From an uncultured Planctomycetia bacterium (GTDB lineage: Bacteria; Omnitrophota; Gorgyraeia; Duberdicusellales; 4484-171): a stretch of 39,611 bases of DNA. Shown piece by piece: positions 13,119 through 35,219 of this stretch. A program made the translations under genes and the position numbers. The notes beneath the pieces are model-generated. The model ran no database searches, had not been told where the DNA came from, and saw only the letters and a list, made by a program, of their open reading frames with translations. The DNA lies in contig CAZHVO010000003.1 in NCBI GenBank assembly GCA_964536195.1, forward strand, positions 1,797 to 41,407. Reading direction: 5' to 3'. The first letter of the stretch is position 1; each line of letters starts with the position of its first letter.

Positions 13119-14072
13119 ATGCAACAGCTGATAATTGTATTGACCCACCGCTGCAACCTCAGGTGTCGATATTGCCCCGTTTTGCATAATTCCGCTACAA
13201 TAAATTATAATACTGCTATAATAGCCATTGATTTATTTTTAAATGGGCAAGATAGAAAATATTTAATTAAATTTTCGGGCGGAGAGCCGTTGTTAGAATT
13301 TACTTTATTGAAGGATATCGTAATATTTGCCAGAAATAAGGGGCTAAAATTAAATAAGAGTGTTCAGTTTCAAATAACGACAAATGGTATCTTGCTTAAT
13401 GATGCGGTTATAAATTTTTTCAAAAAAAGTAAAGATATTGAATTAATAGTAAGCCTGGACGGCAGCAGAAATACTCAGCTGAAGAATAGAATATCGGTTG
13501 ATAAAAAATTAAATTCTTCTGACAGTATCATCTTTCAAAAGCAGAAAATTCTTTCGATCCCTCGCGTAATCATCAATATGGTAGTTGCGCCTAATGAGGT
13601 GAAGAAATTCTATCGTAATTTTCTTTATATTTTGAAACTGGATTTTTGCCGCTTTATTTTTTTACCGGCCTATTTCGTTTACTGGAATAAAGAAAAAATT
13701 AATAAATTAAAAAAGGAATTTTGTAGGATAGCGGAATTTATAAGTAAAAATAAAAATAGAATAAATATTTATGTTAAAAACTTAGATTTGATAAGCCCAG
13801 CGCCTCTTTTTAATAGTGGGTTAGTCATTGATTGTAATGGAGATGTGTTTAGTGACAATTTGGTTCTTTCCCAACGATTTGCTTATCTGCGTAGGCAGCT
13901 TAGGGTTGGAAACATTAAGGATTTCTCTTTTAAACCTTTCTTTTTTAGACAATCGATCGATATAAATCACTTAATTGACCGGGTTACTCCCAAGTCTATT
14001 CTAGGGTCAACTAGAACAGTTGATCGTGTCTTAACGGATTTTGTTAACCGCCTAAAAAATGAAACGAGCTGA
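13119..14072 (+). CDS. Radical SAM protein (group B here: no C-terminal Cys cluster)
   Basis: LTHRCNLRCRYC, FSGGEP, TTNG, SLDG; C-terminal NSGLVIDCNGDVF. Confidence 0.88.
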   Translation: MQQLIIVLTHRCNLRCRYCPVLHNSATINYNTAIIAIDLFLNGQDRKYLIKFSGGEPLLEFTLLKDIVIFARNKGLKLNKSVQFQITTNGILLNDAVINFFKKSKDIELIVSLDGSRNTQLKNRISVDKKLNSSDSIIFQKQKILSIPRVIINMVVAPNEVKKFYRNFLYILKLDFCRFIFLPAYFVYWNKEKINKLKKEFCRIAEFISKNKNRINIYVKNLDLISPAPLFNSGLVIDCNGDVFSDNLVLSQRFAYLRRQLRVGNIKDFSFKPFFFRQSIDINHLIDRVTPKSILGSTRTVDRVLTDFVNRLKNETS

Positions 14073-14949
14073 TATTAAAACCGGGTTTAATTGTAATAAT
14101 CATTGTCGGTTTTGTGTCCAGGGTAATAAGAGAGTTTTGTATGGCGATAAAAGCACGGTAGAAATAAAGAAAGCTTTACAGGAGGCAAGAAACGATTGCG
14201 ATAGTGTGGTATTTACCGGCGGAGAACCAACAGTCAGGAAAGATATTATTGATTTGGTAAGATATGCTAAGAGTTTAGAATTTGAGACTATTCAGATACA
14301 GAGTAACGGCCGGATGTTTTGCTATGAGAAATTCTGTACGGCAATAATTATTGCCGGAGCGAATGAATTTTCTCCGGCAATTCACGGTCATATCGCACAA
14401 CTCCATGACTTTTTGACTGCTTCAAAGGGTAGTTTTAAGCAGAGTATCACTGGAATTAAAAATTTAAAGAAACGGGGGCAAAAAGTAATCACTAACACTG
14501 TTATTACGAAATCAAATTATCGGCATTTACCGGAAATTGCGCGACTTCTATCTTATTTAAAAGTAGATCAGTATCAATTTGCCTTTGCTCATGCTTTAGG
14601 AACGGCTGGAGAAAATTTTGAATCAATCATTCCTCGAATGTCAATGATTATGCCTTATGTGAAAGAAGGCTTGGATATTGGAATCGTAGCCGGAAAAAAA
14701 GTTATGACCGAAGCAATTCCTTATTGCCTTATGCAGGGGTATGAAGAATACATTGCTGAAAAGATTATCCCTGATACAAAAATATACGATTATGATCGTA
14801 TAATAGATGATTTTACAGAAATACGTCGAAAAGAAGGCAAATTAAAGGGGCCGAAATGCAAACAATGTAAACATTTCCAATATTGCGAAGGCCCCTGGCG
14901 GGAATATCCCGAAAAATTTGGCTGGACAGAATTTGTGCCAAAAATGTGA
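14059..14949 (+). CDS. Radical SAM protein, HxsC-like (group A here)
   Basis: CNNHCRFC, FTGGEPT, IPYC, CKQCKHFQYCEG. Confidence 0.88.
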   Translation: MKRADIKTGFNCNNHCRFCVQGNKRVLYGDKSTVEIKKALQEARNDCDSVVFTGGEPTVRKDIIDLVRYAKSLEFETIQIQSNGRMFCYEKFCTAIIIAGANEFSPAIHGHIAQLHDFLTASKGSFKQSITGIKNLKKRGQKVITNTVITKSNYRHLPEIARLLSYLKVDQYQFAFAHALGTAGENFESIIPRMSMIMPYVKEGLDIGIVAGKKVMTEAIPYCLMQGYEEYIAEKIIPDTKIYDYDRIIDDFTEIRRKEGKLKGPKCKQCKHFQYCEGPWREYPEKFGWTEFVPKM

Positions 14950-15036
14950 GATCAAATATTGGATCTCTGTAATCAGAGGACATTTGTAAAAGCTTACCTA
15001 AGAGAGGGATAATTTTTAGGAGCGAGGGCAGCTATA

Positions 15037-15957
15037 TTGGGAAGCGGCGAATTCCTTCATGTCTCTATTAACAATCGATGCAATAATAATTGCATATTTT
15101 GCATGGAAACTGATGCTAAAAATTTGATTCCTCCCTCTTCTAAGAGGCTATCCATTCTCTTCCAGAAAGCAATAAAAAAAACAGATAGTGTTTTATTTAC
15201 TGGACCTGAACCCACAGTAAATAAATCTTTGGTAAATTATATAAAGATGGCCAAAAAAATAGGATACAAAGATATACGTTTAGTAACCAATGGCCGTCTT
15301 CTTTGTCACTTTGATTATGCTCGTGAATTACTAAAATCTGGTTTAACAGAATTCAACATTGCTCTTCATGGGAGTAAAAGATCGATTCATGATGCCATGA
15401 CAAGAACACCTCATAGCTTTGATCAAACAATCAAAGGATGCTATAATCTATCGAAGTTGAAGTCAGATTATCTATTTCGATGGTATATTAGTTTTACACT
15501 TACCAAAGTTAACTCACCCGATTTGTACAACTTTCTTAAATTAACAGTCTTCTTAAAAGGAGTTAATGGGAGTATTATTAATACGGTGATTCCTCAAGGA
15601 GGAGGATTGATCTTTTTTAAGAATTTAATTTCAAACTATACTGATCTAGCTGATTCTTTTAAATCAGCAATTGAGCGGTTAAAGAAGAATCCTAAAGTTC
15701 AATCAAAAGACCGATTCAATATCAGCATACTTGGTTTACCAGTCTGTTTGTTGGTAGGCTATGAGAAATATGCCAGCGAGTACGAGAGCATCTTAATGAA
15801 TTCCGGAAACAAAAAAATCAATATTAGAAAAAGAGAACGTTCCAAAAAATTAAAAAGAGAAAAATGTAAAGAGTGCAAATATGATTCGTTTTGTGAAGGA
15901 GTTTGGTGGCGATATATAAAAATGAAAGGTTGGCGGGAATTTCACCCGATTAAATAA
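15037..15957 (+). CDS. Radical SAM protein, HxsC-like (group A)
   Basis: CNNNCIFC, variant FTGPEPT, LPVC, CKECKYDSFCEG; TTG start uncertain. Confidence 0.85.
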   Translation: MGSGEFLHVSINNRCNNNCIFCMETDAKNLIPPSSKRLSILFQKAIKKTDSVLFTGPEPTVNKSLVNYIKMAKKIGYKDIRLVTNGRLLCHFDYARELLKSGLTEFNIALHGSKRSIHDAMTRTPHSFDQTIKGCYNLSKLKSDYLFRWYISFTLTKVNSPDLYNFLKLTVFLKGVNGSIINTVIPQGGGLIFFKNLISNYTDLADSFKSAIERLKKNPKVQSKDRFNISILGLPVCLLVGYEKYASEYESILMNSGNKKINIRKRERSKKLKREKCKECKYDSFCEGVWWRYIKMKGWREFHPIK

Positions 15958-15989
15958 TGTGTTAAAAATTTTATCCTAACTGAATAAAA

Positions 15990-18800
15990 ATGAATGAAAA
16001 TACATCAAAGACTAGATATCGTGATAAAATCGTTGGTCGAACCGATAGCTTTCCGAATGCAATTTGTTTGGTAAATAAATTCAAAAAGACAATTAAAAGA
16101 CCAGAATTGTTAAGGAAAGTTAAAACAATTTTTTCAACTTCAAGAAAGAATAGCATTGTATGCACGCTAGCTGATTATCGAGCCCTTGTAGATGTATATC
16201 AGCGGAGTCGAAATCGAAAAGCCGAAAAAAGCAGTTCTAAATCTAAAATTCTTCTTTTCAGGAATATTTTTAATTCTTCGGGTAAAGAGAAAAACCAAAG
16301 TTTTAGCTCAGCAACTCTTTATTTGGCTTCTGGCCTAAAGAAGGCAGGTTTTAGAGTCGTTTTTAGCAATTCCAAGATTTCTTTGGAGAACGACGATTTT
16401 ATTACGCAAAAAGAGGAGTTGGAGAAAATTTTGAGAGCGAATTCCGACATAAACATTATCGGTATTTCTCTCTGTGAAGACTTTTTCGAAAAGGCTAAAG
16501 AATTAATTAAATTTCTAAGAAAAAGAACGAAGGCTTTTATCGCAGTGGGTGGTGTAATGCCAACACTAACTCCTGAACATGTTTTTGTTCATTTACCGGA
16601 TGCGAATTTTTTGGTCAGGGGCGCTGGTGAAGAAGTTCTTCCCAAAATGGCTAAAATTTTAGGAGGAAAGAATATTGATTCTTCTTTCGACAAAGGAGAG
16701 GTAGAAAATCTTTTAAAACTTAAAGGCGTTCTTTTTCAGAATAAATTTATTTTTATTTCTGCAGCTTTAGATAAAGTTAATAATATTACAGATTACGACT
16801 GTTCTTTTCTTGATTTCAGTTTCCTGAAGGCGGAAAATATTACTAACGGTCTAATTCTTTTTACTTCCCGAGGATGTTTTAATAATTGTTTTTTTTGCAC
16901 TTCGCCGGGAAAGGGTGAATATGTAGCTAAAAGTTTTAAGAATTTAAAAACAATTATTAAGAACTATAAGCAGAGGCTCAACGAAATTTTTAAGAAAGAT
17001 ATCCCACCTTCTGCTTTACGGATTTCTTTCTATGATGATGATTTTCTCGCCGATACTCAAAGAGCTAAATCTTTTTTCTTGTATCTGAAAAAACAACCAT
17101 TCCGCATAAATTTTTTCCAAACCGGCATAAACTCTTTTTTTGAAAAAGTTGGAAAGAAGTACTCCGGCAAGTTAGACCGGGGACTTCTTAAGAGTTTGGC
17201 TCCGGAAATTTTTGACCCCTCAAAAGAAACAAATATTTATATAGGACTTGAAAATATTTCCGATAGAGAACTTACAAGATTAGGCAAGGGGTACAGCCAT
17301 AAAAAAGCCGAAAAAATAATAAATACATTAGCTCTGAAGAGAATTAAAATCACTTGTCACTTTATAGCTTCAAATCAATTAACTTCTTTAGACAATATTG
17401 TAGAAAATTTATTCAAGTTTTCTGTTTTCCAAGCTCTTTACGGACAATATTTTAAAGTTTTAACTCCAATTATTCCTTACCTTGTGTCTCTTTATCCATC
17501 GGCAAGTTATAAAATTTCTTTAATAAATAAACGAGAAAAATTTATTAATATTCGTCGTAATCTATTAGTGGAAAATTATCCAGAGTATGATTATTCTCTA
17601 GTAGAGAATGATATTCCTATGAGCAAGGCTGTACAAGCCTTGGTTCCTTTACTTTATGATTCATTTTTGGCTAATAAGAATTATTTTAAAATTTTAGATG
17701 AGATGTTATCTAATCTCCTGCTTTTACAAGAAAAAATTCCTTCGGCACAAAAAGAGATATCAAATGTGGTTAGGAAATATAATAATTATTACCTGATGAT
17801 TGATAAAAAGGTATCTCGTATGGTAACCCCCGGCCGGAATAACCTGCAATTAATGATTACTAAGCGATGCCACCTTCGCTGTAAATATTGTCCGATTGTT
17901 AAAAAAAATGAAGACATGAGCGAAGATGTGCTGTATCAAGCAATTAATTTTCTTTTTACCGCTTCCGGAGACACTCTTCGCTTGGATTTTACTGGTGGAG
18001 AGCCGTTGTTAAGATTTGATTTGGTAAAAAAAGGAGTTGAGTACGCTAAAAAATTAGCCCGAAAGAAAAACAAAAATATTTCTTTTTACCTGGTAACAAA
18101 TCTTATTGCGATGGAGGATGATATTGCTGATTTTTTGGCCAGAGAAAATTTTTTCCTGGAATTGTCAGTAGACGGGGAAGAAAAATTCCATAATCTTTAT
18201 AAAATCGGAAGAGACCATAAAATAAACGCTTATCAATCAACAATAACTAAATTGCAGAAAGTATTTTCAAGAAAAATAAATAATTATGCGGTGATGGTAG
18301 TAAATCCAGCCACTGTTAGATATCTGTGGCGTAATTTTTACCATATTATGAAATTAGGATTTAGAAGAATCGGTGTTAATTATGCCCTTTGCTCAACATG
18401 GGAAGCAGATGCCCGAAGGGAATTTTTCCGACAATTTGATTTAATTAAGGAAGCTTTACACCTCCATATTAAAAAAGGGATAGTCAGCTTAACTAATCTA
18501 GAGTCGAGAAACGAACCGGCTATTCTAAATAGTGAAATAATGGTTGACGTTGACGGGAGAGTGCGACTATTGACCGATTACCTTTTTGAAAAAGAAATTA
18601 AAAAGAAACCGCCCTTTTTAGGAGAAATAGGAAACTTTAAGAATATAAATGAAATTTTTTTGACGCAGTTTCGAACTTTATCCCGGTTGTTTCGGTATCA
18701 GGCAACTCCTAAAATAAAAAAGGTTATTCTTAATAATATCGAAATGGGAAATTTGACAAAAATCTATTTTGAAGAATGGAAAAGCAAATTAAAGCAATAA
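15990..18800 (+). CDS. Cobalamin-binding radical SAM domain fused to a group B radical SAM domain
   Basis: LYLASGLKKAG, VGGVMPT, VRGAGEE, TSRGCFNNCFFC, FYDDDF; second domain ITKRCHLRCKYC, FTGGEP, EPAILNSEIMVDVDG. Confidence 0.85.
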   Translation: MNENTSKTRYRDKIVGRTDSFPNAICLVNKFKKTIKRPELLRKVKTIFSTSRKNSIVCTLADYRALVDVYQRSRNRKAEKSSSKSKILLFRNIFNSSGKEKNQSFSSATLYLASGLKKAGFRVVFSNSKISLENDDFITQKEELEKILRANSDINIIGISLCEDFFEKAKELIKFLRKRTKAFIAVGGVMPTLTPEHVFVHLPDANFLVRGAGEEVLPKMAKILGGKNIDSSFDKGEVENLLKLKGVLFQNKFIFISAALDKVNNITDYDCSFLDFSFLKAENITNGLILFTSRGCFNNCFFCTSPGKGEYVAKSFKNLKTIIKNYKQRLNEIFKKDIPPSALRISFYDDDFLADTQRAKSFFLYLKKQPFRINFFQTGINSFFEKVGKKYSGKLDRGLLKSLAPEIFDPSKETNIYIGLENISDRELTRLGKGYSHKKAEKIINTLALKRIKITCHFIASNQLTSLDNIVENLFKFSVFQALYGQYFKVLTPIIPYLVSLYPSASYKISLINKREKFINIRRNLLVENYPEYDYSLVENDIPMSKAVQALVPLLYDSFLANKNYFKILDEMLSNLLLLQEKIPSAQKEISNVVRKYNNYYLMIDKKVSRMVTPGRNNLQLMITKRCHLRCKYCPIVKKNEDMSEDVLYQAINFLFTASGDTLRLDFTGGEPLLRFDLVKKGVEYAKKLARKKNKNISFYLVTNLIAMEDDIADFLARENFFLELSVDGEEKFHNLYKIGRDHKINAYQSTITKLQKVFSRKINNYAVMVVNPATVRYLWRNFYHIMKLGFRRIGVNYALCSTWEADARREFFRQFDLIKEALHLHIKKGIVSLTNLESRNEPAILNSEIMVDVDGRVRLLTDYLFEKEIKKKPPFLGEIGNFKNINEIFLTQFRTLSRLFRYQATPKIKKVILNNIEMGNLTKIYFEEWKSKLKQ

Positions 18801-20011
18801 TTAATTCTTTTATCGATGATTTCGATCAGCAAAAGCTGGTTTTGCTGGAGCATATACTTTTTTCTCTATTGTTGGAGAGAGAAGCGTATTTACTTCAAAG
18901 AAAAAAAAGCACATATACAAAGAAAATAGCAGGAATCCTATCTCGTTATGCTAATTACCGGTATCTAATTTACGAAACAATGTCAAAGAAGAAAAAAGTT
19001 GATAAAAACTTTCTTATGAGAAATATTTATATCTCCCCTCAGCGCCTTATCGTTCTTCTGACTCATAATTGTCAATTACGCTGCGAGTATTGTCGGGTAA
19101 GCAAATTCTCATCTTTCATGAATAAAGAAACTTTATTTAAAGCGATCGATTTACTGTTTACTTCCAATTCACGAGAGCTTCAACTTCAGTTTTTTGGCGG
19201 TGAGCCTCTTCTAAAATTTGATTTGATCAAAAAAGCAGTTATTTATGGAGAAAAAGCTGCTAAACGGCTGGAAAAAGATCTAGTTTTTATCCTTACGACC
19301 AACGGTATTGAGCTGACAAAAGAAAAGGTAGATTTTCTAAAAAAGCACCGGTTTATTATCGAGTATAGCATAGATGGTGAGGTTGAGGCTCAGCTTAAGA
19401 CCAGGATGGCCTCTAACAATAAAAATTATTATTCACATATGATAGATAATTTTGAGTATCTTAAACAGTCAGGCATACGCCACTATTCTATTAGCGTGGT
19501 CATGCCGCATACTGTTTCGCCAATGTTTAGAAACTTTAAGCATTTGGTAGATATTGGGTTTGAGAGTTTACAGATGAATTATTCTTTAGGGTTTTTCTGG
19601 CCCAAGAAGGAGGTAAAAACTCTTTTTCGACAAACAGAGCAAATTCTTAACTATGTTAAGAAACACAGGGATATTCAATTCATTAATTTAACTTCTGCGA
19701 GGAAAGAGCCGGTAGTCCTTAACGCTGAGCTGACGGTAGATTGTGATGGTGGGATATATATGGAATCGGGAATTTGCCTTGAGGAAGATTTTATTGAGAT
19801 GAAAAACAAATTTTTGGTAACCGATCTAGAGAAAGCGGTAAACGTCAATTTGTACGGTTCCACTCCTTTTCAAAATTTTTACCGCTTATCAGAAATTTAT
19901 GGCGCGGCAAACCCCAAATTTAGAGAAATTATTCTAAATAATATTTTCTTGGGAAAAAAATACAACTTATTTTTAAAAAATGAAAAAAGTAAAATTTTCC
20001 ATTCCTTATAA
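18776..20011 (+). CDS. Radical SAM protein (group B) with an N-terminal helical extension
   Basis: LTHNCQLRCEYC, FFGGEP, TTNG, SIDG, EPVVLNAELTVDCDG. Confidence 0.88.
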   Translation: MEKQIKAIINSFIDDFDQQKLVLLEHILFSLLLEREAYLLQRKKSTYTKKIAGILSRYANYRYLIYETMSKKKKVDKNFLMRNIYISPQRLIVLLTHNCQLRCEYCRVSKFSSFMNKETLFKAIDLLFTSNSRELQLQFFGGEPLLKFDLIKKAVIYGEKAAKRLEKDLVFILTTNGIELTKEKVDFLKKHRFIIEYSIDGEVEAQLKTRMASNNKNYYSHMIDNFEYLKQSGIRHYSISVVMPHTVSPMFRNFKHLVDIGFESLQMNYSLGFFWPKKEVKTLFRQTEQILNYVKKHRDIQFINLTSARKEPVVLNAELTVDCDGGIYMESGICLEEDFIEMKNKFLVTDLEKAVNVNLYGSTPFQNFYRLSEIYGAANPKFREIILNNIFLGKKYNLFLKNEKSKIFHSL

Positions 20012-20972: not shown

Positions 20973-23170
20973 AAATGTCTAAAATTGTTTTGATAAATCC
21001 TGTAAATCTTGACCCCCCGCCTAATTATTTTGGGCCGCCATATGGGTTAAGTCTTATAGCGGCTAATCTTTTAAAATGCAACAAGAAAGTTACCGCTTAT
21101 GACTTTGACTTTCAACCGATGCCGGTAATGCTGCAGGCAATCCCGGAAATACTAAAAAAAGATAAACCTGATTATATAGGTATTGCAACACAAAGTTGTG
21201 CTAGAGGTTCAGTATATCAGATCATTAGGGCAATAAAAAAAAATGATAACAAGGTAAAGATAATATTAGGTGGGCCATTTGCGTCATTGAAATTTGAGTT
21301 GCTTTTGCGCAATTTTGCTGTTGATTTTGTAATAATCGGCGATGGAGAGATAACTTTAAATCAGCTTATTGATTGTATTGACAATAAAGATAACTTGAGT
21401 GATGTGGATGGTATAGCATATATAGGAAGTGGTAAGCTTTGTGTGACTCAGGAAAGAGAAAAAATAAGCAATTTAGATCAATTACTTTACCCTGCTTTTC
21501 ATCTTTTTAAAGACTTTAATGAGAGAATGGCCTTTCCTAAAAATCTTGGCCCTTTGCCAAATTTTTTATTAGGTAAACGGTGTACAACCTTAAAAGATGC
21601 ATTGTTAATGTTGTCTTCCAGAGGGTGTATTTATAGCTGTAACTTTTGTCCAATGAGCAAGATAACTAAGCATAAAATAAGATTTCATAGCCCGGAGTAT
21701 TTTGTAAATATGGTTGAGTATTTTCATGAAAAGTATAGTATTAGTGATTTTGTTTTTGGCGATAATTTCTTTACATTAAGAAAAGAAAGAGTTCTGAAAA
21801 TTTGTGAGTTGATATTACAGAAAAAGCTAAAAATAAAATGGGGTTGTATGACTCGTTCTGATTATGTTGACGAGGAGATGTTGTCGATAATGGCGAAAGC
21901 TGGCTGTTTTGAAATATCTTATGGAGTTGAAAGTGGATCAGTTTTGATTCAGAAAAAAATAGGTAAAAATCTTGATCTAGCTAAAACCAAAGAATCATTT
22001 TTAATGACGGAAAAGTTTGGCATTAGAAGTGTGCTTATGCTTATGATTGGGAATAGTGGAGAAAATGTAAATACGATAAAGCAGACTATGAAATTTGTCC
22101 GCGGAATGAGGCCGGATAGTATTTTGGTTAAAAAAGTAAAGGTGTATCCCGGTACAAAAATTCATGATATTTTTGAACAAAAAGGTTTGATAGATGACAA
22201 TTATTATTTAGGCGATGACTACCATCCGCCTACCTTTACTTTGGCGCATAGCCAAAATAAACTTAATGATTTTTCAGATATGATTAAGTCGAGGAGGGTA
22301 TATATAGACTCTACTAACGTTTCAAACAACAATTCATTGTTTAGTGATTTAGATAGCGGTTTAAGAGATAAAGATCTTGATACCATTAAAAAAGAACTTG
22401 CATTAGCTTTAACTAGGGCAGAACTGGTGGTACTGACCGGAGGCGAGTTTTTTCTGCGTAAAGATTTTTTTGATATTCTGCGATTTGCTATCGACTTAAA
22501 TCTTCATCATCTTTATATAAAAAGCAACGCAAGAATATTTTTATACAATAAGTTTTTAGAAAAATTGATGAATATAGAATGTCTGGAAAAAATTTTAGTT
22601 CCTTTTTACGGCGAAGAGGCTTATCACGATCAAGTTTGCCGGGTTAAAGGAGCTTTTTCCCAAACTGTAAAAGGCATTAAGAATTTAAAATTAAGATTTC
22701 CTTACATCAAAGTCCAGGCACAAATACCAATTTTACTTAATAATTTTGAAAGAATTCAGGATTTAACAGTAATGCTTTCAAATATGGGGGTTGATGAGTT
22801 TCACTATCTATTTGGCCGTAGTTGCGATGGGATTACGAAAGTAAGTCCGAATAATTTACCGCTTATCAGCAAAGCTATGAAGAGTATTGCAACGGCAAGT
22901 AAGTGGTTGGTTAAAAAAAATAAAGAAATATCTTTTGAGGGTGTGCCTTTATGTATAGCCGGAAAGTACAAATACTATTGTTGCGATTTCACGCAGCCCT
23001 TTGACGAGGTAATAACATTTGATAATAAAGTCGTGGGTTGTATTGAATTGAGAAAAAAATATAAGAAAAAGTATTTTTTTTGTAGAAAATGCAAAGAGGG
23101 TGATTTGTGTGAAGGTGTTTGGAGAAATTATGCGAAAATAGCAAAATCTGATGAGCTTAAACCATACTGA
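20969..23170 (+). CDS. B12-dependent radical SAM (class B methyltransferase-like) fused to a degenerate HxsC-like domain
   Basis: IVLINP, PPYGL, ILGGPFAS, IGDGE, SSRGCIYSCNFC, YGVESGS; C-domain SNNNSLFS, LTGGE, VPLC, CRKCKEGDLCEG. Confidence 0.87.
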   Translation: MKMSKIVLINPVNLDPPPNYFGPPYGLSLIAANLLKCNKKVTAYDFDFQPMPVMLQAIPEILKKDKPDYIGIATQSCARGSVYQIIRAIKKNDNKVKIILGGPFASLKFELLLRNFAVDFVIIGDGEITLNQLIDCIDNKDNLSDVDGIAYIGSGKLCVTQEREKISNLDQLLYPAFHLFKDFNERMAFPKNLGPLPNFLLGKRCTTLKDALLMLSSRGCIYSCNFCPMSKITKHKIRFHSPEYFVNMVEYFHEKYSISDFVFGDNFFTLRKERVLKICELILQKKLKIKWGCMTRSDYVDEEMLSIMAKAGCFEISYGVESGSVLIQKKIGKNLDLAKTKESFLMTEKFGIRSVLMLMIGNSGENVNTIKQTMKFVRGMRPDSILVKKVKVYPGTKIHDIFEQKGLIDDNYYLGDDYHPPTFTLAHSQNKLNDFSDMIKSRRVYIDSTNVSNNNSLFSDLDSGLRDKDLDTIKKELALALTRAELVVLTGGEFFLRKDFFDILRFAIDLNLHHLYIKSNARIFLYNKFLEKLMNIECLEKILVPFYGEEAYHDQVCRVKGAFSQTVKGIKNLKLRFPYIKVQAQIPILLNNFERIQDLTVMLSNMGVDEFHYLFGRSCDGITKVSPNNLPLISKAMKSIATASKWLVKKNKEISFEGVPLCIAGKYKYYCCDFTQPFDEVITFDNKVVGCIELRKKYKKKYFFCRKCKEGDLCEGVWRNYAKIAKSDELKPY

Positions 23171-26100: not shown

Positions 26101-27032
26101 CTTTTCAATCTAACGAGCATCCGGTTTTGATTCCCGTTCTAAAAAGTGATGTTGAAGCTCAACAGAAGACTTTGAAAAAGATAGGCATAAACTCTTCATT
26201 TTTATATCTAAATGGCCCCTGTAGAAACAATTGCATATTTTGTCTTAATAAAGAAGAGGAGCGCTATTCTGATCCTTTTAAAAGTGAACGCTTGATTGAG
26301 AAGAATAAGGATTTGAAGAATAATAAATTATGTATTGTCGGAAATGACCCTCTCCTGCATCCTGATATCATTACTATTGTAGAATTAGCCAGAGGATTCA
26401 ATTTTAAAGAGATAGAAATCATGACTTCAGGAGAAGTATTGGCTAATGAGGGTTTTACTAAAAAGTTGATTAATTCCGGTGTTAGTTCATTTTCTCTTCC
26501 TTTATATTCTGATATAGCCCAAATCCATGATTTTATAGTAGGAGTTAAAGGTAGCTATCCGAAGGTTTTGAAGGGCGTAGAAAATGTTTTATCTAATAGA
26601 GGGAGGGTGTTTGTTCATTCTAATTTGTTGAAGCAGAATATTGACGGTCTAAAAAAATTAGAAGGGTTTGTGAAAAATATTTTAGGTTTGCCGTTTGTTA
26701 TTTTGCCGGTTAGACCTAAAAGTTCTAATTTGTTATACAAAGATTTAGTGCCTTCTTATAGGGATATTGTAATGAAGTTAAAAGGGGTAAATTCTTTGAT
26801 GGCTTTTCCCCTATGCGTTGTTAAGCAGGTTCAGAAGAATATTTTTAAAGATGAAAGCGAGATAGCCGATTCGATGAAATTATATGTTTTAGACCAAAAG
26901 TTTGTTAAACCGCAAAAGTGCCGCCGGTGTGCGGATCGCCTTAAATGTGTGGGGATTTTTAAAGAGCATGGCCAGATGTATGGAGTTGGAGCTTTGAAGC
27001 CTTTTATTAGAAATGGCAAGAAAATCAGTTAA
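23151..27032 (+). CDS. Four-domain radical SAM protein (B-B-B-A)
   Basis: CQLDCSYC (aa 22), CQMCCRYC (aa 353), CQLKCGYC (aa 682), CRNNCIFC (aa 1024) in one open frame. Confidence 0.88.
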   Translation: MSLNHTENNSVANMLICITAKCQLDCSYCSLDREVQDITESMLYDALDLLFTAKKDILEIQFFGGEPLLRFDLMEKAVNYATEKNQKIGKNIRYVLTTNGLILNDENCQFLKQHDFTLLLSIDGMPETQIKNRPLSFSGKTNYFESISKALAFLKVFKIDYFVNMVFMPDDVKKMTENVEYLIDLGVKDIQLAYAVGQYFSDNNIFRSVDEFTKIAQLAKERKVRFRNLDNDNEPILFSPQVVVSPLGKVYVGCALVLEKKFKEFNDIFYYDQLNNGLTFEDVCRTNSEQFALLEKNRDKIDKALFSNLSLGVALDIFAKHYRISKDKGLNMYEAQSNYLYHDKLMLMLTHKCQMCCRYCYLDFTHPDIKEEVIYKAIDVLFFSQKKDSVEIQFFGGEPLLRFDLMKKTINYAEKKCVEAGKKVKYLLATNGIGLGAKELEYLSNYQVGFILSIDGKSRTQRYNRPLLNKKKNYPFIRFTRVINNLVGQKRDFFINLVVGPKNVNALVDNALFFLKLGVKNIRLSYELGVFWEKKYIIRYCIASFKIMWEWIKHGDNNLINLHVDDEPSLISPVLTVDYEGSVYSGCTITLEKLFPAFRKINYIDNICNVKRMEDMSRTRKEVVSKMWSLSEKRELVFNNLMVGKLAEQHFHKFNVEEKKDVDSDLPKYKVSGLMLMCTYQCQLKCGYCEIEQCDKSMKQKVVEDAIDLLLTTKGKECLLRFWGGEPLLEWELIKKGIKAGIKKAKIKNKKLKFSITTNGLLLDEEKLDFLKKNSVEIMFSMDGDELANKTFRLKGVNEKLYTELENNLKLLANSGIAHFVNLVVFPDNVEHLAKNISFIKRLGVQRIQIGYQNAVFWGADKVKAMQDQIRKFFEANGGEELLMNFVNDCEPTMLSNEILVDVDGKLYLDGAVFMEKDFPALRKQYFLGDLKAIKRVDDLYLTKKDVFNKFKKACNARQRKLLDNNIDLGLEMEYFYNDFSSRSFQSNEHPVLIPVLKSDVEAQQKTLKKIGINSSFLYLNGPCRNNCIFCLNKEEERYSDPFKSERLIEKNKDLKNNKLCIVGNDPLLHPDIITIVELARGFNFKEIEIMTSGEVLANEGFTKKLINSGVSSFSLPLYSDIAQIHDFIVGVKGSYPKVLKGVENVLSNRGRVFVHSNLLKQNIDGLKKLEGFVKNILGLPFVILPVRPKSSNLLYKDLVPSYRDIVMKLKGVNSLMAFPLCVVKQVQKNIFKDESEIADSMKLYVLDQKFVKPQKCRRCADRLKCVGIFKEHGQMYGVGALKPFIRNGKKIS

Positions 27033-28697: not shown

Positions 28698-28714
28698 CGA
28701 GAGTATTTAAAGAG

Positions 28715-29134
28715 ATGGCTATTAATCGTCGCGTAGGGAAGTTCGCTTTCTGCTGTCCTCACTGTCGGGTTATAGCAGAAGATTTAAGATATTGCCCCTT
28801 ATGTGGTAGAAAACTGTTTGTGGTTAAAGAAGGCTATTATGCTAGTCTCTTAGGAGATACCGTAATAAAAACTGACTTTCCTGAACAGAAAAAACCTTCT
28901 CATCTGGGAGATTTTCCTTGGATAAGTATATGTGTTTGTTCTAAGTGTAAATACACGGTTCATGCGGGAGAGGTTTGTCCTGTAGATGGTACAAAGCTAA
29001 AAAAGAAGATAGTTAAAATAGCTTACGCTTGCAAAAGAGACAGAATCGCTTTTTCTACTAAGACAACGTGTCCTCTTTGTAAAATTCCCACCATAAAAAT
29101 TGAGGACGTTCATACTGTTAAATTTGCCATTTAA
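28715..29134 (+). CDS. Small protein with three Cys-knuckle (zinc-ribbon/heavy-metal-binding-like) units
   Basis: CPHC..CPLCG, CSKC..CPVDG, CKRD..CPLC. Confidence 0.65.
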   Translation: MAINRRVGKFAFCCPHCRVIAEDLRYCPLCGRKLFVVKEGYYASLLGDTVIKTDFPEQKKPSHLGDFPWISICVCSKCKYTVHAGEVCPVDGTKLKKKIVKIAYACKRDRIAFSTKTTCPLCKIPTIKIEDVHTVKFAI

Positions 29135-29219: not shown

Positions 29220-30149
29220 ATGGAGCGGCTTGAATTTCATATCTCATACAAATGTTATAACAATTGTTGTTTTTGCAGTGAAAGCGGCCAATTAAGTAAA
29301 TTCAGAGATTTATTTGTTTCCCGAGAGAAGATTATTGCTAATCTGGAAAATTTTGCCAAAAAAGGCTTTAAACATATTACTTTTACCGGAGGCGAGCCGA
29401 CCTATCATCCTCATTGTATTGAGATTCTGAAATTAGCCAAAAAATTAGGATATAAAACTTATCTGACAACTAACGGTGGACTGTTCTCGCTAAAGAAGTT
29501 TACCCAAAAAGCTTTGCCCTATCTTGATGAAGTTTGTTTTTCACTTCACGGCCACACTGCAAAGCTCCATAATTTTCATACTCGTAACAAAAAAAGTTTT
29601 AGTAAACTGGCCAAAGCCTTAGCAAACATAGAAGAGGCAAAGGAAAATACTTTTGGGTTTGCTAATATTGTAATAACTAAATATAATTTCGATTTTTTAA
29701 TTGAGATTATCGATTTCATTAGTCGCTACAAGAAGATAAAACAGGTTCTTGTTTCCAATTTTGCTCCTGAAGGTAACGGGTTATCCAATTTTAATGAATT
29801 AGTTGTACCTTTATTCCGAATTAAAGAAAAGGTTGGCGCGATCGTCGATAAGGCAGAGAGTCAATCTATAGTGGCAAGATTTTTTGGAGTACCGCTTTGT
29901 GCATTAAATGGTTATTGGAATTATTCTAACGATGCTTATTGGTCATCGCGTACGACCATTGAACAATGGAAAACGAATAAAAAGATATTTCTAAAGAAAA
30001 CTTTAAGCTATAAACCGGTTCGGGGAAGAGTTAAAACTCTCAAGTGCCGGCAATGTTTAAAAAAAGATATTTGTGGAGGACTTTTTAAAAAATATTATCA
30101 TGAATTCGGTGATTATGAATTAATGCCGTTTTCAAGAGAGGTAGAATGA
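29220..30149 (+). CDS. Radical SAM protein, HxsC-like (group A)
   Basis: CYNNCCFC, FTGGEPT, VPLC, CRQCLKKDICGG. Confidence 0.88.
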   Translation: MERLEFHISYKCYNNCCFCSESGQLSKFRDLFVSREKIIANLENFAKKGFKHITFTGGEPTYHPHCIEILKLAKKLGYKTYLTTNGGLFSLKKFTQKALPYLDEVCFSLHGHTAKLHNFHTRNKKSFSKLAKALANIEEAKENTFGFANIVITKYNFDFLIEIIDFISRYKKIKQVLVSNFAPEGNGLSNFNELVVPLFRIKEKVGAIVDKAESQSIVARFFGVPLCALNGYWNYSNDAYWSSRTTIEQWKTNKKIFLKKTLSYKPVRGRVKTLKCRQCLKKDICGGLFKKYYHEFGDYELMPFSREVE

Positions 30150-32239
30150 ATAATAATCAAAGAGATTTGACAGCACAGGTTAAGAAAAAATGGGTTAGGC
30201 TAACTCGGGTGTGCAATAACCGCTGTCTATTCTGCTTGGACAAGAATGCACAGAATGGTAGTCATTTATCCCTAGCTGAGATAAAAAAAGTTTTTCAAGC
30301 CGGGCGTAAAGAAAAGGCAGAAAAAGTTATTTTAAGCGGCGGCGAACCTACTTTGCACCCGAAATTTATTGATATTGTAAAAAAAGCTAAAAAACTGGGC
30401 TATACTAAGATTCAGGTTATTACCAATGGCAGGATGTTTGCTTATAAGAAATTTTTAGATCAGGCAATAAATGCTGGTGTTGGTGAGGTGACTTTTTCTA
30501 TACATGGACATAATCAGAGATTACATGATAAACAAACCGGAGTAAAGGGGTCTTTTTTCCAAACTTTGGCCGGTTTAGCGGCTGCTTTACAGACTCAGGG
30601 GCTTATAGTAAATGTAGATATTGTGATTAACAAAATCAACATACGCTATCTGAAAGACATTATAGAGTTTTATATTAATTCAGGCGTTTTAGAGTTTGAT
30701 CTCCTGCAAGTTATGCCTTTTGGCCGAGCCTGGGACAATAGAGAGGTTCTTTTTTACGACATTGAAGAGTCACTTCCATTTTTAAATGAGGCTTTCCAAT
30801 TATCCAGGGACCCCAATCTACATATTTGGACCAATCGGTTTCCGCCGGAATACCTTGAGGGTTTTGAAGATTTAATTCAACATCCAGTTAAGCTATATGA
30901 CGAAGTAGGCGGACGTCGTGACATGTTTGATAGATTCCTTAATAATGGAAAAAAAATGGATTGTAAAGGCAAGAAATGCTCATATTGTTTTTTGGAAAAC
31001 TTTTGTAAAGATGTGATACTGCTAAAAGAAAAAGGTGAATTGACCTCACACGTTCTCCCTTTTTGTTTAAAAGAGGCGAAAGAGACCCGCGATGTAAAGA
31101 TGCAGTGTAAATATACATTGAGTAAAGACAACAGGGGTATTTTTAAGTTCCTTTCTTTTTATATTCAGCATAGATATTTTATAAAGGGGCTAAGGTGCAA
31201 AAAGTGTAAATTTAATGATCGCTGCACAGGAATGCAATGTGATTATATCCGTAATCATGGATTCCAGGTTTTGAAGCCGATTCTGGACAAGAGAACAAAA
31301 TATAAACAAACTGTTTTGCAAAAAAACATTCCCTACAGGCTTCTTCGGTTAAATTTAGCCTGCAATGCTAATTGTCTATTTTGTAATGTGCCGCCGGAGT
31401 CTTATCCGTTGCAAGAAATGTCGACTCAGCAAGCTAAATCCGAAATTGATCGTCTTATTGCTTTAGATAAAGAATTAAGATTGGATATTACCGGTGGTGA
31501 ACCTACTTTAAGGGGCGATTTAGAAGAGTTAATCGAATATGCATCTAAAAAAGGAGCAAAGGTAATTGAAATTCAGACCAATGGTATTTTATTGGCTAAT
31601 AAAGAGTACGTAAAAAAATTAAAATTAGCGGGCCTTGGTAAAGCATTCTTGGCTCTTCATTCTTGTTATCCTGAGATTCACGATTTTCTTGTCGGCAGAA
31701 AGGGTGCTTTTGAAAAATGTGTTACTGGTATTAAAAACTTATTGAAAGCCGGCGTTGAAGTCATTCTGAATCCGGTAATTACTGTTAAGAATTATGAATG
31801 TTTACCGGATTATATAAAATTTATCAAAAACAATTTTCCCCGGATAAAATCCGTATCTCTTTCGGTTGTTCAGCCGCGAGGCCGCGCAGGAAATAATAAA
31901 TATTTAATACCCCGTTACAAGGTAATTTCCTCTCATATAAGAAAAGCATTGACACTGGCTAAAAAATATGGATTGATTATCTATAATCCCTATTGTGGAG
32001 TGCCATTATGTATAGGGGGATGGCATCGCTACCCGGAGCAGTGTGTGGAATATTGCGAGAATCTTTTGAAGTCAAAAAGCGGTTTCGGAGAAGATGATTT
32101 TAATGCCGATAAGGTGAAAAGTCCCGACTGTTGCAAGTGCGATTTAAATAATTTTTGCAATGGCGTATGGAAAGAGTATGCCGCGATTTATTCTTTTTCT
32201 GATTTAAAGCCGGTCAGGCTGAAAAAGCAAGCTATCTAG
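30146..32239 (+). CDS. Tandem two-domain HxsC-like radical SAM protein (A-A)
   Basis: CNNRCLFC/LSGGEPT/LPFC/CKKCKFNDRCTG and CNANCLFC/ITGGEPT/VPLC/CCKCDLNNFCNG. Confidence 0.88.
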   Translation: MNNNQRDLTAQVKKKWVRLTRVCNNRCLFCLDKNAQNGSHLSLAEIKKVFQAGRKEKAEKVILSGGEPTLHPKFIDIVKKAKKLGYTKIQVITNGRMFAYKKFLDQAINAGVGEVTFSIHGHNQRLHDKQTGVKGSFFQTLAGLAAALQTQGLIVNVDIVINKINIRYLKDIIEFYINSGVLEFDLLQVMPFGRAWDNREVLFYDIEESLPFLNEAFQLSRDPNLHIWTNRFPPEYLEGFEDLIQHPVKLYDEVGGRRDMFDRFLNNGKKMDCKGKKCSYCFLENFCKDVILLKEKGELTSHVLPFCLKEAKETRDVKMQCKYTLSKDNRGIFKFLSFYIQHRYFIKGLRCKKCKFNDRCTGMQCDYIRNHGFQVLKPILDKRTKYKQTVLQKNIPYRLLRLNLACNANCLFCNVPPESYPLQEMSTQQAKSEIDRLIALDKELRLDITGGEPTLRGDLEELIEYASKKGAKVIEIQTNGILLANKEYVKKLKLAGLGKAFLALHSCYPEIHDFLVGRKGAFEKCVTGIKNLLKAGVEVILNPVITVKNYECLPDYIKFIKNNFPRIKSVSLSVVQPRGRAGNNKYLIPRYKVISSHIRKALTLAKKYGLIIYNPYCGVPLCIGGWHRYPEQCVEYCENLLKSKSGFGEDDFNADKVKSPDCCKCDLNNFCNGVWKEYAAIYSFSDLKPVRLKKQAI

Positions 32240-32390
32240 ACTATGCCGGGAGTTAAAAGGAAGAATTTATATTAGAACCAGCGGCTATCACAATAACCCT
32301 GGCCCTTAACCGAAGGGTAACCCTGATAAGCAACAAAGTAAAAAAAGTTAGATTTTAACAAAGGACAGTAACTATTTAAAAGTAGTAATA

Positions 32391-33410
32391 ATGATTGTTA
32401 TGGGCCTCGCGGATAAATGTAATTTTAATTGTTTATTCTGTTTAGATAGACAGAGTAGGGGGAAAGGTTCTCCGTCATTACAAGAAATCAGAGGATTATT
32501 TGAAGAAATTAAGAGAAGCAACGAAAATACAATTATGTTGATGGAAGGGGAGTCGCTTATTAGACCAGATTTTTTTGAGATATTGGAAGAAGCAAAGAGA
32601 TGCAAATTAAATGTGTATATTACGACTAATGGTTCAATGCTTAGTTATTATGATTATTTAGTAAAGATTATTAAGAGAGGCGTGAGTCAAATAAACCTTT
32701 CTATACATTCTCATATTCCTGCTATTGCCAATGCCATATCGAGAAATAGCTCTTGCTATTCTTTACAGAGAAAGGCATTAGAAAATATCGATTTATTTAA
32801 TTCCTTGCAAAAAAGAAAGGTAAAAAGAATACCTTTGTATATCAATACAGTTGTTTGTAAATTAAACTATAAACATTTAGAGGGCTTGGTTCTTTATCTA
32901 AAGGGCCTATTAAAGCACACTGATTTTAAAATAAAGTTCAAGTTTATGGTCCGCGGTGGTATTAATATTAATCTTTATAGGAAGCTTTTGCCTTCCTTAA
33001 AAGAAATGAAGCCTTATCTCAAGAGGGCGATAAGCATATTAGGTATAAATAAGGTAATATTCTCTGGTTTTCCTTTGTGCGTTGCGCCTTCCTACGAACG
33101 AGCATGTGTTGAATTGTGGGAGGCATTATATAGCCATAATTTGTATCTCGATTCTTACAGATTAAAGAACTCTAGAACGCAGAGAGACGTAGTTGACCAG
33201 GAATATTGTAAATATAAAGAGTGTAAGGGTTGTTCCTTGAATTCTATATGTTTGGGAGTAAGAAAGGATTACAAGAAGTTAAATCCCGATTTTAATTTAA
33301 CATTATCGAAAAGCAATCCCCAAGAGGTATTTAAGTTTATGAAGTGTTTTCCAGGGAAATCTAAAATAGCAAATCTTGAGATAGAAGAAAAGGAAATATG
33401 GCCAGCTTAG
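32391..33410 (+). CDS. Radical SAM protein, divergent HxsC-like (group A)
   Basis: CNFNCLFC, variant LMEGES, TTNG, FPLC, CKGCSLNSICLG; start uncertain. Confidence 0.82.
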   Translation: MIVMGLADKCNFNCLFCLDRQSRGKGSPSLQEIRGLFEEIKRSNENTIMLMEGESLIRPDFFEILEEAKRCKLNVYITTNGSMLSYYDYLVKIIKRGVSQINLSIHSHIPAIANAISRNSSCYSLQRKALENIDLFNSLQKRKVKRIPLYINTVVCKLNYKHLEGLVLYLKGLLKHTDFKIKFKFMVRGGININLYRKLLPSLKEMKPYLKRAISILGINKVIFSGFPLCVAPSYERACVELWEALYSHNLYLDSYRLKNSRTQRDVVDQEYCKYKECKGCSLNSICLGVRKDYKKLNPDFNLTLSKSNPQEVFKFMKCFPGKSKIANLEIEEKEIWPA

Positions 33411-34330
33411 CCTACATACAGGTTTGTCGTATATGCAATCAGGAGTGTAGGTTTTGCTCCAATCCTTCGCTGGATAAGACTATATCGTTAAAGAAGGCTA
33501 AGAGTCTTGTTGACAATTATATTAGGCAGGGATATGAGGGGGTAATTTTAAGCGGAGGAGAGCCGACGATGTACCCTTATCTTGTAAAACTTATATCTTA
33601 TATAGCAGCTAAAGGATTACCGATGCGGATAATTACTAATGGTCAAAAAACAGCGAATTTTGAATATATTAAGTCGCTTACTGATGCCGGTCTAAAACAT
33701 ATGGGCCTATCTATATATTCTCATAAGCCGCGTATTCAGTCTTTTCTCACTAAAAATAAAGATTCACTCAAGAATATAAAAATAACTCTTAATAATATCG
33801 AAAGATTAAATATGAGCGTTGACATCGGGACGGTGATTAATAAATATAATGCCGGACATCTGAGCGAAATTGTTGAATGGCTGGTAAAAGAATACCCTTT
33901 TATTCGCCATTTTATCTGGAATAATCTTGATGCTTCAATGAACCGTGCTTCTGAGAATCCGGATACAATACCATCACTGATTGGTTTTGAATTAGAACTT
34001 TATAAAGCAATGTTGTTTTTACACAATAAGGGTAAAACTTTTAGAGCCGAAAGAGTGCCTTTGTGCTACATGACTGAATTTGCGCATTGTTCCACCGAGG
34101 CAAGAAAAATAATAAAAAAAGAAGAAAGAACAATTTATTTTTTGGACAAAAAGGGTTTGACATTTCAGAAAGGATGGGCTTACGGAAAAACTGAGTGCTG
34201 TAATGAATGTTCTTTAAATAAGATATGTCCCGGTTTATACTTAATAGATAAGTATTTTTCTTCTAAAGAGTTATATCCTGTTTTTGTTTCAAAAGATGAA
34301 GTAATAAAACGCGTTTTAGCCAACCCATAA
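33398..34330 (+). CDS. Radical SAM protein, HxsC-like (group A)
   Basis: CNQECRFC, LSGGEPT, VPLC, CNECSLNKICPG. Confidence 0.88.
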   Translation: MASLAYIQVCRICNQECRFCSNPSLDKTISLKKAKSLVDNYIRQGYEGVILSGGEPTMYPYLVKLISYIAAKGLPMRIITNGQKTANFEYIKSLTDAGLKHMGLSIYSHKPRIQSFLTKNKDSLKNIKITLNNIERLNMSVDIGTVINKYNAGHLSEIVEWLVKEYPFIRHFIWNNLDASMNRASENPDTIPSLIGFELELYKAMLFLHNKGKTFRAERVPLCYMTEFAHCSTEARKIIKKEERTIYFLDKKGLTFQKGWAYGKTECCNECSLNKICPGLYLIDKYFSSKELYPVFVSKDEVIKRVLANP

Positions 34331-34331
34331 A

Positions 34332-35219
34332 ATGGCAAAAAGATTAGATATAAAAGTCACTTTTAAGTGCAACAACAGTTGTAAATTTTGTGTTCAGGGG
34401 GATAAGAGAAAGTTTTGCCAAGATAAAAAGTTTTATGAGATTAAAAAGATTTTAAAAGAATCAAAGAGTGATTATGATGAAGTTATATTTACCGGCGGAG
34501 AACCTACCATAAGGCCTGATATCATAGAATTGGTAGAGTATGCTAACAAATTAAAATATAGGGTGCATATCCAAACCAATGGGAGGATGTTTTTATACAG
34601 AGAATTTTGTAAAAGGATGATAGAGGCCGGTGCCGCAGCATTTACAGTTTCAATACATGGCCATAACGCTCGGCTGCACGACGCTCTTACTGGGGTAGAG
34701 GGGAGCTTTGATCAAACCATTGCAGGTATTAAGCATCTTTGTTCTCTCAAGGCAGAAGTGTTTACCAATAGTGTTATCACCACTTTAAATTATTGTTTTT
34801 TACCCAAAATAGCTGTTATGGTGATTAATTTAGGTATATTTGAATATCGGCTTTCTTTCCCTCACATTTTGGGAAGAGCATTAACCAATAGAGATTGGAT
34901 TGTGCCGCGAAAAAAAGCAGTCGTCCCTTACGTAAAGAGGGCATTGGAAATCGGCATTAAGAAAGGGCGGATTCCTTTAACTGAGGCTATACCGCATTGT
35001 TTTCTAAGCGAATATGTTCATTGTGCTTCTGAAACCTATATGCCCGAGACAAAAGTGTTTGATAATAAATTAATAGTAGATTTTAGCCGTTGGCGGATGG
35101 AAGAGGGAAAAAATAAAGGGCCAAAATGCAGAGAATGTAAATATTTTGAATGTTGCGAGGGTCCCTGGCGGGAATATCCTGAAATTTTCGGCTGGGATGA
35201 ATTTACTCCTATTAAATAA
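34332..35219 (+). CDS. Radical SAM protein, HxsC-like (group A), close paralogue of 14059..14949
   Basis: CNNSCKFCVQG, FTGGEPT, TEAIPHC, KGPKCRECKYFECCEGPWREYPE. Confidence 0.88.
   Translation: MAKRLDIKVTFKCNNSCKFCVQGDKRKFCQDKKFYEIKKILKESKSDYDEVIFTGGEPTIRPDIIELVEYANKLKYRVHIQTNGRMFLYREFCKRMIEAGAAAFTVSIHGHNARLHDALTGVEGSFDQTIAGIKHLCSLKAEVFTNSVITTLNYCFLPKIAVMVINLGIFEYRLSFPHILGRALTNRDWIVPRKKAVVPYVKRALEIGIKKGRIPLTEAIPHCFLSEYVHCASETYMPETKVFDNKLIVDFSRWRMEEGKNKGPKCRECKYFECCEGPWREYPEIFGWDEFTPIK

Follow-up and report, generated by a model that had tools for sequence, protein, structure and literature searches.

The gene array and its ten HxsC-type domains

The window, as we call the whole 39,611-base stretch of DNA analysed here, lies on contig C3 (CAZHVO010000003.1) of an Omnitrophota genome (GCA_964536195.1) that is 1.17 Mb in size and 91.7% complete. 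From about nucleotide (nt) 9500 to 36200 it carries a single co-directional gene array on the + strand. In order, the array comprises the genes for a secreted protein of 166 amino acids (aa), HxsD, HxsB, a Cys-rich 250-aa protein and HxsA4, fourteen radical S-adenosylmethionine (SAM) genes and the gene for a polytopic membrane protein. A motif search located 19 CxxxCxxC motifs and one degenerate radical SAM domain in the fourteen radical SAM genes, and the twentieth CxxxCxxC of the array lies in a 330-aa protein that is not a radical SAM protein. Judged by sequence, ten of the domains are HxsC-type radical SAM domains and belong to a greatly enlarged HxsA4-type His-Xaa-Ser maturation cluster with about 20 radical SAM domains. 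They are listed below and are named in the text by the first position of their open reading frame (ORF).

14059..14949, + strand: HxsC-type radical SAM protein, 296 aa, lineage C1; CxxxCxxC at aa 12, PYC at aa 221, CKQCKHFQYCEG at aa 267 (nt 14857-14892), tail FVP
15037..15957, + strand: HxsC-type radical SAM protein, 306 aa, lineage C2; PVC at aa 235, CKECKYDSFCEG at aa 277 (nt 15865-15900), tail FHP
22280..23170, + strand: C-terminal HxsC-type domain of a 733-aa B12-binding/radical SAM fusion (ORF 20969-23170); PLC at aa 660, CRKCKEGDLCEG at aa 705 (nt 23081-23116), tail LKP
26181..27032, + strand: fourth domain, HxsC-type, of a 1293-aa fusion of four radical SAM domains (ORF 23151-27032); PLC at aa 1220, CRRCADRLKCVG at aa 1257 (nt 26919-26954), tail LKP
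29220..30149, + strand: HxsC-type radical SAM protein, 309 aa, lineage C5; PLC at aa 225, CRQCLKKDICGG at aa 276 (nt 30045-30080), tail LMP
30146..31300, + strand: first HxsC-type domain of a 697-aa two-domain protein (ORF 30146-32239), lineage C6; PFC at aa 305, CKKCKFNDRCTG at aa 351 (nt 31196-31231), tail LKP
31301..32239, + strand: second HxsC-type domain of the same 697-aa protein, lineage C7; PLC at aa 620, CCKCDLNNFCNG at aa 662 (nt 32129-32164), tail LKP
32391..33410, + strand: HxsC-type radical SAM protein, 339 aa, lineage C8; PLC at aa 228, CKGCSLNSICLG at aa 278 (nt 33222-33257), without an xP tail at the aligned place
33398..34330, + strand: HxsC-type radical SAM protein, 310 aa, lineage C9; PLC at aa 221, CNECSLNKICPG at aa 268 (nt 34199-34234), tail LYP
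34332..35219, + strand: HxsC-type radical SAM protein, 295 aa, second member of lineage C1, 52% identical to 14059; PHC at aa 221, CRECKYFECCEG at aa 266 (nt 35127-35162), tail FTP

The radical SAM motif CxxxCxxC is present in nine of the ten domains, within aa 10-23 of each. The exception is the C-domain of 20969, in which all three places of the SAM-cluster Cys are taken by Ser (codons TCA, TCA and AGT; nt 22310-22345, aa 448-459). Despite this loss, the domain retains the C-terminal four-Cys signature described below. The motif is intact in its orthologs G223_23745 and G248b_8939 from other genomes, and the window copy is probably a SAM-blind domain.

A four-cysteine signature in the C-terminal module

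The pattern C..C.{5}C.G was searched for in all ORFs and in a six-frame translation of the whole window. It occurred exactly ten times, always on the + strand and once in each listed domain, starting at the nt positions given above. In all ten domains, a PxC precedes this CxxCx5CxG by 34-48 residues. Composition-preserving shuffles of the six frames contained a mean of 0.052 motifs (maximum 1, n=500), and when the ten domains themselves were shuffled, a mean of 0.008 domains carried the motif (maximum 1, n=2000). The claim of the original prediction that ten domains share PxC...CxxC-x5-CxG is therefore borne out, ten of ten against 0.052 expected by shuffling, and so is the claim that most of them end in (F/L)xP. 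This tail was found in nine domains, and 32391 has LTL at the aligned place.

In an alignment of the ten domains, the invariant columns were F18, N153, P221, C223, K263, C267, C270, C276 and G278 (14059 numbering). The invariant Lys lies 3-4 residues upstream of the first Cys of the CxxC and thus belongs to the signature too. We regard PxC...K-x3-4-CxxCx5CxG as the signature that marks the C-terminal module across the HxsC family.

The signature is widespread beyond the window. A profile of the ten domains, compared with 1.84 billion representative sequences, matched 100,836 proteins at E<=0.001, the weaker matches including radical SAM proteins in general, and 4,642 proteins at E<=1e-30. The core motif was present in 148 of the 150 best representatives, in most of which two to five such domains are fused. 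These contained 252 motifs in all, 234 with a PxC upstream and 209 with a hydrophobic-x-P tail. The motif was also found in each of the 120 homologs of 14059 among the matches listed. When 62 modules, drawn from the window and from eight further Omnitrophota genomes, were compared, invariance was limited to the four Cys and the Gly, and the Pro was conserved in at least 90%.

Relation to HxsC and HxsC4

The best NCBIfam match of each protein, or of the relevant domain in the fusions, was HxsC4 (NF038332, 'rSAM_rare_HxsC4') or HxsC (TIGR03977). Specifically, HxsC4 was the best match for 14059, 15037, 30146, 32391, 34332 and the C-domain of 20969. Several of the NF038332 matches extend to model position 334-335 of 335 and thus cover the C-terminal motif. 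None of the proteins reached the NF038332 cut-off of 500 bits (range 59-231.5; best single-domain protein 15037 with 197.5, two-domain 30146 protein 231.5). Likewise, none reached the TIGR03977 cut-off of 267.9 bits (single-domain proteins 42.8-105.1; two-domain 30146 protein 215.9, summed over its domains). In the source genome, 0 of 1 TIGR03977 match was over the cut-off, and no NF038332 match over the cut-off, that is, no true HxsC4 member, was found in this genome or in five related genomes.

As a canonical sample, we took four annotated HxsC proteins encoded on plasmids of Aeromonas, Nostoc, Adhaeribacter and Mesorhizobium, each adjoining hxsB. All four carry xC...K..CxxCx5CxG at columns equivalent to those of the window domains, and their core could be aligned with the window domains as well. 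A tree was then computed from the ten window domains, the four HxsC and 12 other radical SAM domains (five HxsB, six PapB-like domains of this array without SPASM and the SPASM protein 27013), with MoaA, AhbD/NirJ and BlsE left out. Against the 12 other domains, the ten window domains and the four canonical HxsC formed one clade with a support of 98 in the Shimodaira-Hasegawa-like approximate likelihood ratio test (SH-aLRT).

The window domains resemble canonical HxsC in their CxxxCxxC core, in the C-terminal signature and in having HxsD, HxsB and a His-Xaa-Ser repeat protein as neighbours. They differ from it in several respects. Canonical HxsC proteins are 379-401 aa long and have an N-terminal extension of about 100 residues in all four cases (CxxxCxxC at aa 108-123), which all ten window domains lack. 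Three of the four have Gln in place of Pro before the first Cys, and their hairpin region is shorter than in the window domains. Moreover, the canonical form has one HxsC per system, whereas the window has ten HxsC-type domains; more than 99.8% of HXS systems are four-gene systems (PMC13128918; here and below, this paper, PMC10452713 and PMC6231123 are cited for the accessible part of their text). HxsC4, the partner of HxsA4 (NF038313), is like the window domains in having no long N-terminal extension, and HxsA4 itself scores over its cut-off here.

Because of the NCBIfam top matches, the shared clade (SH-aLRT 98) and the adjoining HxsD, HxsB and HxsA4, the domains can be identified as HxsC-like. 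The original prediction had said as much and had proposed an alignment and tree with canonical HxsC as the check; both agree with it, with the signature columns shared by all ten window domains and all four canonical proteins. The window domains thus appear to work like HxsC and to come from the same ancestral stock, although by the curated tests they are members of neither TIGR03977 nor NF038332. Since canonical HxsC carries the same motif, the signature is no discovery of the window. The four-Cys motif is an ordinary signature of the HxsC family, not a special feature of this locus.

Evolution of the ten domains

Pairwise identity among the ten domains is 16-32%, except for 52% between 14059 and 34332. 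For each of the ten, the best match outside the window is at least as good as the best match inside it. Homologs of 14059 with 60-84% identity come from sources named Omnitrophota, Patescibacteria, Parcubacteria, Deltaproteobacteria and Margulisiibacteriota, and orthologs of 33398 (C9) with 48-62% identity come from Omnitrophota, Myxococcales, Parcubacteria and Saccharibacteria.

We built a maximum-likelihood (ML) tree from 60 near-full-length modules and the four canonical HxsC, leaving out partial domains and contig-end fragments. On this tree the window label required 10 changes for 10 rows, and no two window domains were sisters. Nine of the ten fell into groups with domains of other genomes at SH-aLRT >=95; the placement of 32391 was without such support. 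For example, 15037 (C2) grouped with orthologs of G248b, G242 and G240, and domain 4 of 23151 grouped with orthologs of G248b, G223 and G242. Additionally, 34332 was sister to G171_14411 (SH-aLRT 100) and not to 14059. The approximately unbiased (AU) test rejected the ten window domains as one clade (delta log likelihood 1615, p 3e-66).

To follow the distribution of such arrays, 300 further genomes of the phylum were searched with a profile, and up to 7 candidates were scored per genome. At least 21 genomes had matches to profile position 283 or beyond, and several had 7 or more candidates. Of the two same-genus genomes, G260 and G135, one had just one match, a weak one (E 8.8e-28), and the other had none, and genomes of other families had full arrays. 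This patchy distribution suggests loss or transfer. The arrays of eight genomes have a gene order like that of the window, with HxsD, HxsB, HxsA4, B12 fusions of 900 aa and 730 aa, a two-domain protein and a closing membrane protein. An equivalent kit was also found in metagenome-assembled genomes (MAGs) labelled Myxococcales, Parcubacteria, Saccharibacteria, Portnoybacteria and Elusimicrobiota, and in one labelled Methanosarcinales. In these MAGs of other phyla, C1 was present at 54-68% identity, often together with relatives of C6, C9 and C5, HxsD/HxsB/HxsA4 and the membrane protein. Lineages C1, C5, C6 and C9 thus recur in gene order in other phyla.

An origin of the ten domains by local duplication in this lineage, with each copy serving an individual position of the repeat peptide, would account for ten paralogs in one co-directional array, for the single lineage formed by the 52% identical 14059 and 34332, and for the near match of 10 modules to 11 His in the HxsA4 of the window. 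However, all other pairs are only 16-32% identical, no two window domains are sisters, 34332 pairs with a G171 protein, matches outside the window equal or exceed those within it, and four lineages recur in other phyla. Nor does module number keep step with His number. In seven genomes, the counts of His in HxsA4 and of HxsC-type modules were 11/10, 7/3, 8/4, 10/2, 7/13, 14/8 and 17/11, where the DNA examined may not include every gene of each cluster. The idea of one enzyme per histidine was dropped, as these counts do not track each other. Local duplication is rejected by the tree and the AU test, and we consider it almost certainly wrong. The original prediction of a local radiation is refuted by the low identity, the 10 label changes and the AU test, and the position-specific chemistry that it offered as a possible purpose finds no support in the counts from seven genomes. 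The ten domains are, on the evidence of the tree, ancient paralogs found in many microbes, and not a local expansion.

Predicted structure of the C-terminal module

An AlphaFold2 (AF2) model of 14059 had a predicted local distance difference test (pLDDT) score of 96 and a predicted template modelling (pTM) score of 0.92, and a model of the isolated 92-residue module had a pLDDT of 93.2. The module proper, from PxC to the end, comprises about 75 residues. Both models show the same order of elements: the first Cys just past the last core strand, a beta-hairpin, a helix and the CxxCx5C loop. In the whole protein, C223 is followed by strand 240-243 and a short strand, helix 252-260 and then C267/270/276. 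In the isolated module, C19 is followed by strands 37-40 and 43-47, helix 48-56 and then C63/66/72.

The top structural neighbour of the whole 14059 model was SkfB (Z 22.2); SuiB had a Z of 20.6, and anSMEcpe had a Z of 19.1 with 271 residues aligned. Only SPASM enzymes (SuiB, anSMEcpe, CteB, PqqE and ChlB) and BlsE extended past residue 276 in these alignments. Those of Viperin, PFL-AE, NifB and HydE mostly stopped at 217-258, with single entries reaching 276. When the ten-domain profile was compared with solved structures, it gave 40 matches, and among the alignments listed only the radical SAM core was covered (positions up to about 210). A look-up of 14059 in the ESM Atlas returned only generic 'radical SAM' clusters.

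A twitch domain is a shortened version of the SPASM domain with three or four Cys that holds one auxiliary cluster (PMC10452713), and with its four invariant Cys the window module has that number. In the models, it also resembles the twitch domains of BtrN, SkfB and MoaA in following the (beta/alpha)6 core and in the order Cys, hairpin, alpha2', Cys ligands, a ligand pattern described for BtrN and SkfB (PMC6231123). BtrN and SkfB, however, have a Cys after the hairpin and two Cys after alpha2', whereas in the window module no post-hairpin Cys is conserved and three of the Cys lie in a CxxCx5C loop of the SPASM type. The SPASM cluster motif has as its core CxxCx5C with a Gly after it (PMC10452713, PMC6231123). 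The likeness to SPASM (PF13186; anSME, PqqE, SuiB, CteB) consists in this element and in whole-model alignments over residues 1-293/296. SPASM differs in having CX9-15GX4C and a fourth Cys three residues past the third; the fourth ligand of the window module would lie upstream, not downstream. A one-cluster AhbD subset of SPASM has CX2CX5C and one further Cys (PMC10452713).

One lineage departs from the common plan. Domain 1 of 30146 (C6) has an additional Cx4Cx2Cx5C at aa 273-287 (nt 30962-31006), upstream of the PxC. This second set was found in all 11 orthologs examined, from Omnitrophota, Myxococcales, Parcubacteria and Saccharibacteria, suggesting that C6 alone among the lineages holds two auxiliary sites.

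Nature of the proposed auxiliary site

Experimental data on an HxsC come from Li et al. (Nat Commun 2026; PMC13128918), who described the HXS antiphage system HxsD-HxsB-HxsC-HxsA of Pseudomonadota. In that paper, the HxsC of Escherichia coli is described as having two 4Fe-4S cluster domains, and the C342A/C345A substitution reduced HxsA cleavage in the E. coli system. The CxxC of C342 and C345 would correspond by position to the window motif.

We consider it probable that each module holds one fully ligated auxiliary [4Fe-4S] cluster in a twitch-like fold. The proposal in the original prediction of one auxiliary metal site in a compact module distinct from full SPASM is plausible. The motif with its invariance, its presence in canonical HxsC, the predicted topology, the ancient paralogy and the conserved synteny are findings of this analysis; the identity of the metal, its full ligation, a redox role and the substrate are inferred. 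The four invariant Cys would fully ligate one [4Fe-4S] cluster, SAM would be cleaved at the N-terminal CxxxCxxC cluster, and the auxiliary cluster might serve electron transfer in radical chemistry on the His/Ser/Gly repeats of HxsA4.

Several observations weigh against such a cluster or are neutral to it. Pfam SPASM (PF13186) matched none of the ten C-terminal segments at E<=10, although HMMER filters drop most matches above about 0.1; elsewhere in the window, PF13186 matched the 27013 protein (E 6.7e-13) and HxsB (E 0.00082). A 67-module profile was compared by hhalign with the SPASM regions of 11 HxsB proteins and three SPASM370 proteins. Against the HxsB regions it aligned over 18 columns, motif on motif, with a probability of 8.9% (P 0.0037), which is no evidence of homology, and against the SPASM370 proteins the probability was 1.7%. 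With the isolated module, Foldseek gave no PDB match at E<=0.001 and five at E about 9, and VIA-align gave none among 48,161 representative chains at Z>=2. From these null searches it follows neither that the fold is new nor that it differs from twitch domains. In addition, the ligand pattern of a pre-hairpin Cys plus CxxCx5C matches neither the BtrN/SkfB twitch nor SPASM Aux II exactly. The 20969 C-domain keeps the motif without a SAM cluster, which would fit a purely structural site too, and in E. coli C342A/C345A only lowered activity (PMC13128918).

A structural site could be a Cys4 zinc knuckle or ribbon by which the C-terminal tail is fastened to the barrel. The arrangement C...CxxC...C suits Zn also, and one of the ten C-terminal segments gave a weak, sub-threshold match to the rubredoxin-like zinc ribbon zf-ChsH2 (E 0.0096; 16.1 bits, cut-off 23.2). 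The survival of the motif in 20969 and the lack of a SPASM or twitch structural match for the isolated module could be read in the same way. Nevertheless, CxxCx5C with its Gly is the SPASM core, the modelled module occupies the twitch/SPASM position with the element order of these domains, the other nine segments have no zinc-finger match, and the only experimental paper treats the site in its accessible text as a 4Fe-4S domain (PMC13128918). The remaining Pfam matches of the ten segments (NSRP1_N, A33R and Ral), like that to zf-ChsH2, were sub-threshold and at chance level only. We consider structural zinc unlikely. Somewhat less likely still is a cryptic full SPASM domain, with two auxiliary clusters in all ten domains and a second site completed by non-Cys or substrate-derived ligands. 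Such a domain would agree with the finding that, besides BlsE, only SPASM enzymes align across the whole model, with the second four-Cys set of C6, and with the open or non-Cys coordination known in CteB, PqqE and MoaA (PMC6231123). On the other hand, the invariant Cys number only four, both among the ten window domains and among the 62 modules, the module is short, Pfam SPASM does not match, and no CX9-15GX4C element is present. The seven or eight conserved Cys of SPASM (CX9-15GX4C...CX2CX5CX3C...C) are likewise lacking, with the extra Cys set of the C6 lineage as the exception to the count of four.

If a single [4Fe-4S] cluster is accepted, the likenesses to twitch and SPASM may be joined in a more speculative picture, which we put forward tentatively as a possibility short of even chances. 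The module might be a hybrid site, with one [4Fe-4S] cluster that occupies the twitch (Aux I-like) position and is ligated fully by Cys, namely those of a CxxCx5C loop of the SPASM Aux II type and the Cys before the hairpin, a combination seen so far in no solved radical SAM structure. About ten ancient lineages (C1, C2, C5, C6, C9 and others), found from Omnitrophota and the candidate phyla radiation (CPR) to an archaeal MAG, might differ in the radical modification that each makes on a single His-Xaa-Ser repeat protein. In this picture, a second cluster would have been acquired by C6, and what is left of the C-domain of 20969 would be a scaffold or electron relay that bears the cluster but is blind to SAM.

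Other genes of the array

The neighbours that place the domains in a His-Xaa-Ser system, and the gene that closes the array, are as follows.

10059..10472, + strand: HxsD (TIGR03976, 66.1 bits, cut-off 50), context gene
10653..12125, + strand: HxsB, radical SAM/SPASM maturase (TIGR03978, 502.3 bits, cut-off 370), context gene
12813..13109, + strand: HxsA4, His-Xaa-Ser repeat protein of 98 aa, presumed substrate (NF038313, 71.1 bits, cut-off 55), with 11 His and 8 His-x-Ser (HxS) units
35225..36181, + strand: polytopic membrane protein of 318 aa, last of the array, with relatives of 24-54% identity at cluster ends of other genomes

The relatives of HxsA4 have a common N-terminal FLxSEEGKIxKK box, followed by a hydrophobic segment that ends in an AxA-like site. 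Their C-terminus is GQW, GGWC or SRW, and the number of HxS units ranges from about 5 to more than 30. The membrane protein gave no Pfam match at E<=1; it contains GAGDAKL, which we take to resemble the GxGD motif of A24 prepilin peptidases. The secreted 166-aa protein (9538-10038), directly upstream of HxsD, ends in CCAY and has relatives of 27-37% identity at the equivalent place in G061, G171 and G223.

Six further radical SAM domains, at 13119-14072, 17800-18800, 18776-20011 and 23151-26150, have PapB/HxsB-type maturases as their best match. They have neither SPASM nor the C-terminal Cys motif and form a clade of their own, and three of them are fused in ORF 23151. The 330-aa protein at 19980-20972 gave a weak, sub-threshold match to Peptidase_U32 (E 0.0031), has a C-terminal CxxxCxxCxxC, and has orthologs of 49-52% identity in G248 and L038. 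Two non-radical-SAM genes lie within the array at 28203-29134. One encodes a protein with the Lcl C-terminal domain (PF07603, E 3.4e-32), and the other encodes a 139-aa protein with 12 Cys and weak matches to double zinc ribbons.

Significance

The HxsC family and the HxsA4 and HxsC4 models were already known, and a second cluster in HxsC had already been proposed (PMC13128918). A full-text literature search, the supplements of PMC13128918 aside, found enlarged clusters or the motif in no paper beyond that one and its preprint, and found no paper naming HxsC4 or HxsA4. As for HXS chemistry, the accessible text of PMC13128918 reports only an unexplained change of +8 Da and states that the enzymes could not be reconstituted. 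The four-Cys module is what canonical HxsC and all paralogs of the enlarged clusters have in common. Small single-domain members without the N-terminal extension, such as 14059 with its 296 aa and model pLDDT of 96, are compact targets for determining the metal content and the role of the second site. Because the paralog lineages are ancient and syntenic, they argue for a multi-step pathway, rather than redundant copies, in the enlarged clusters.

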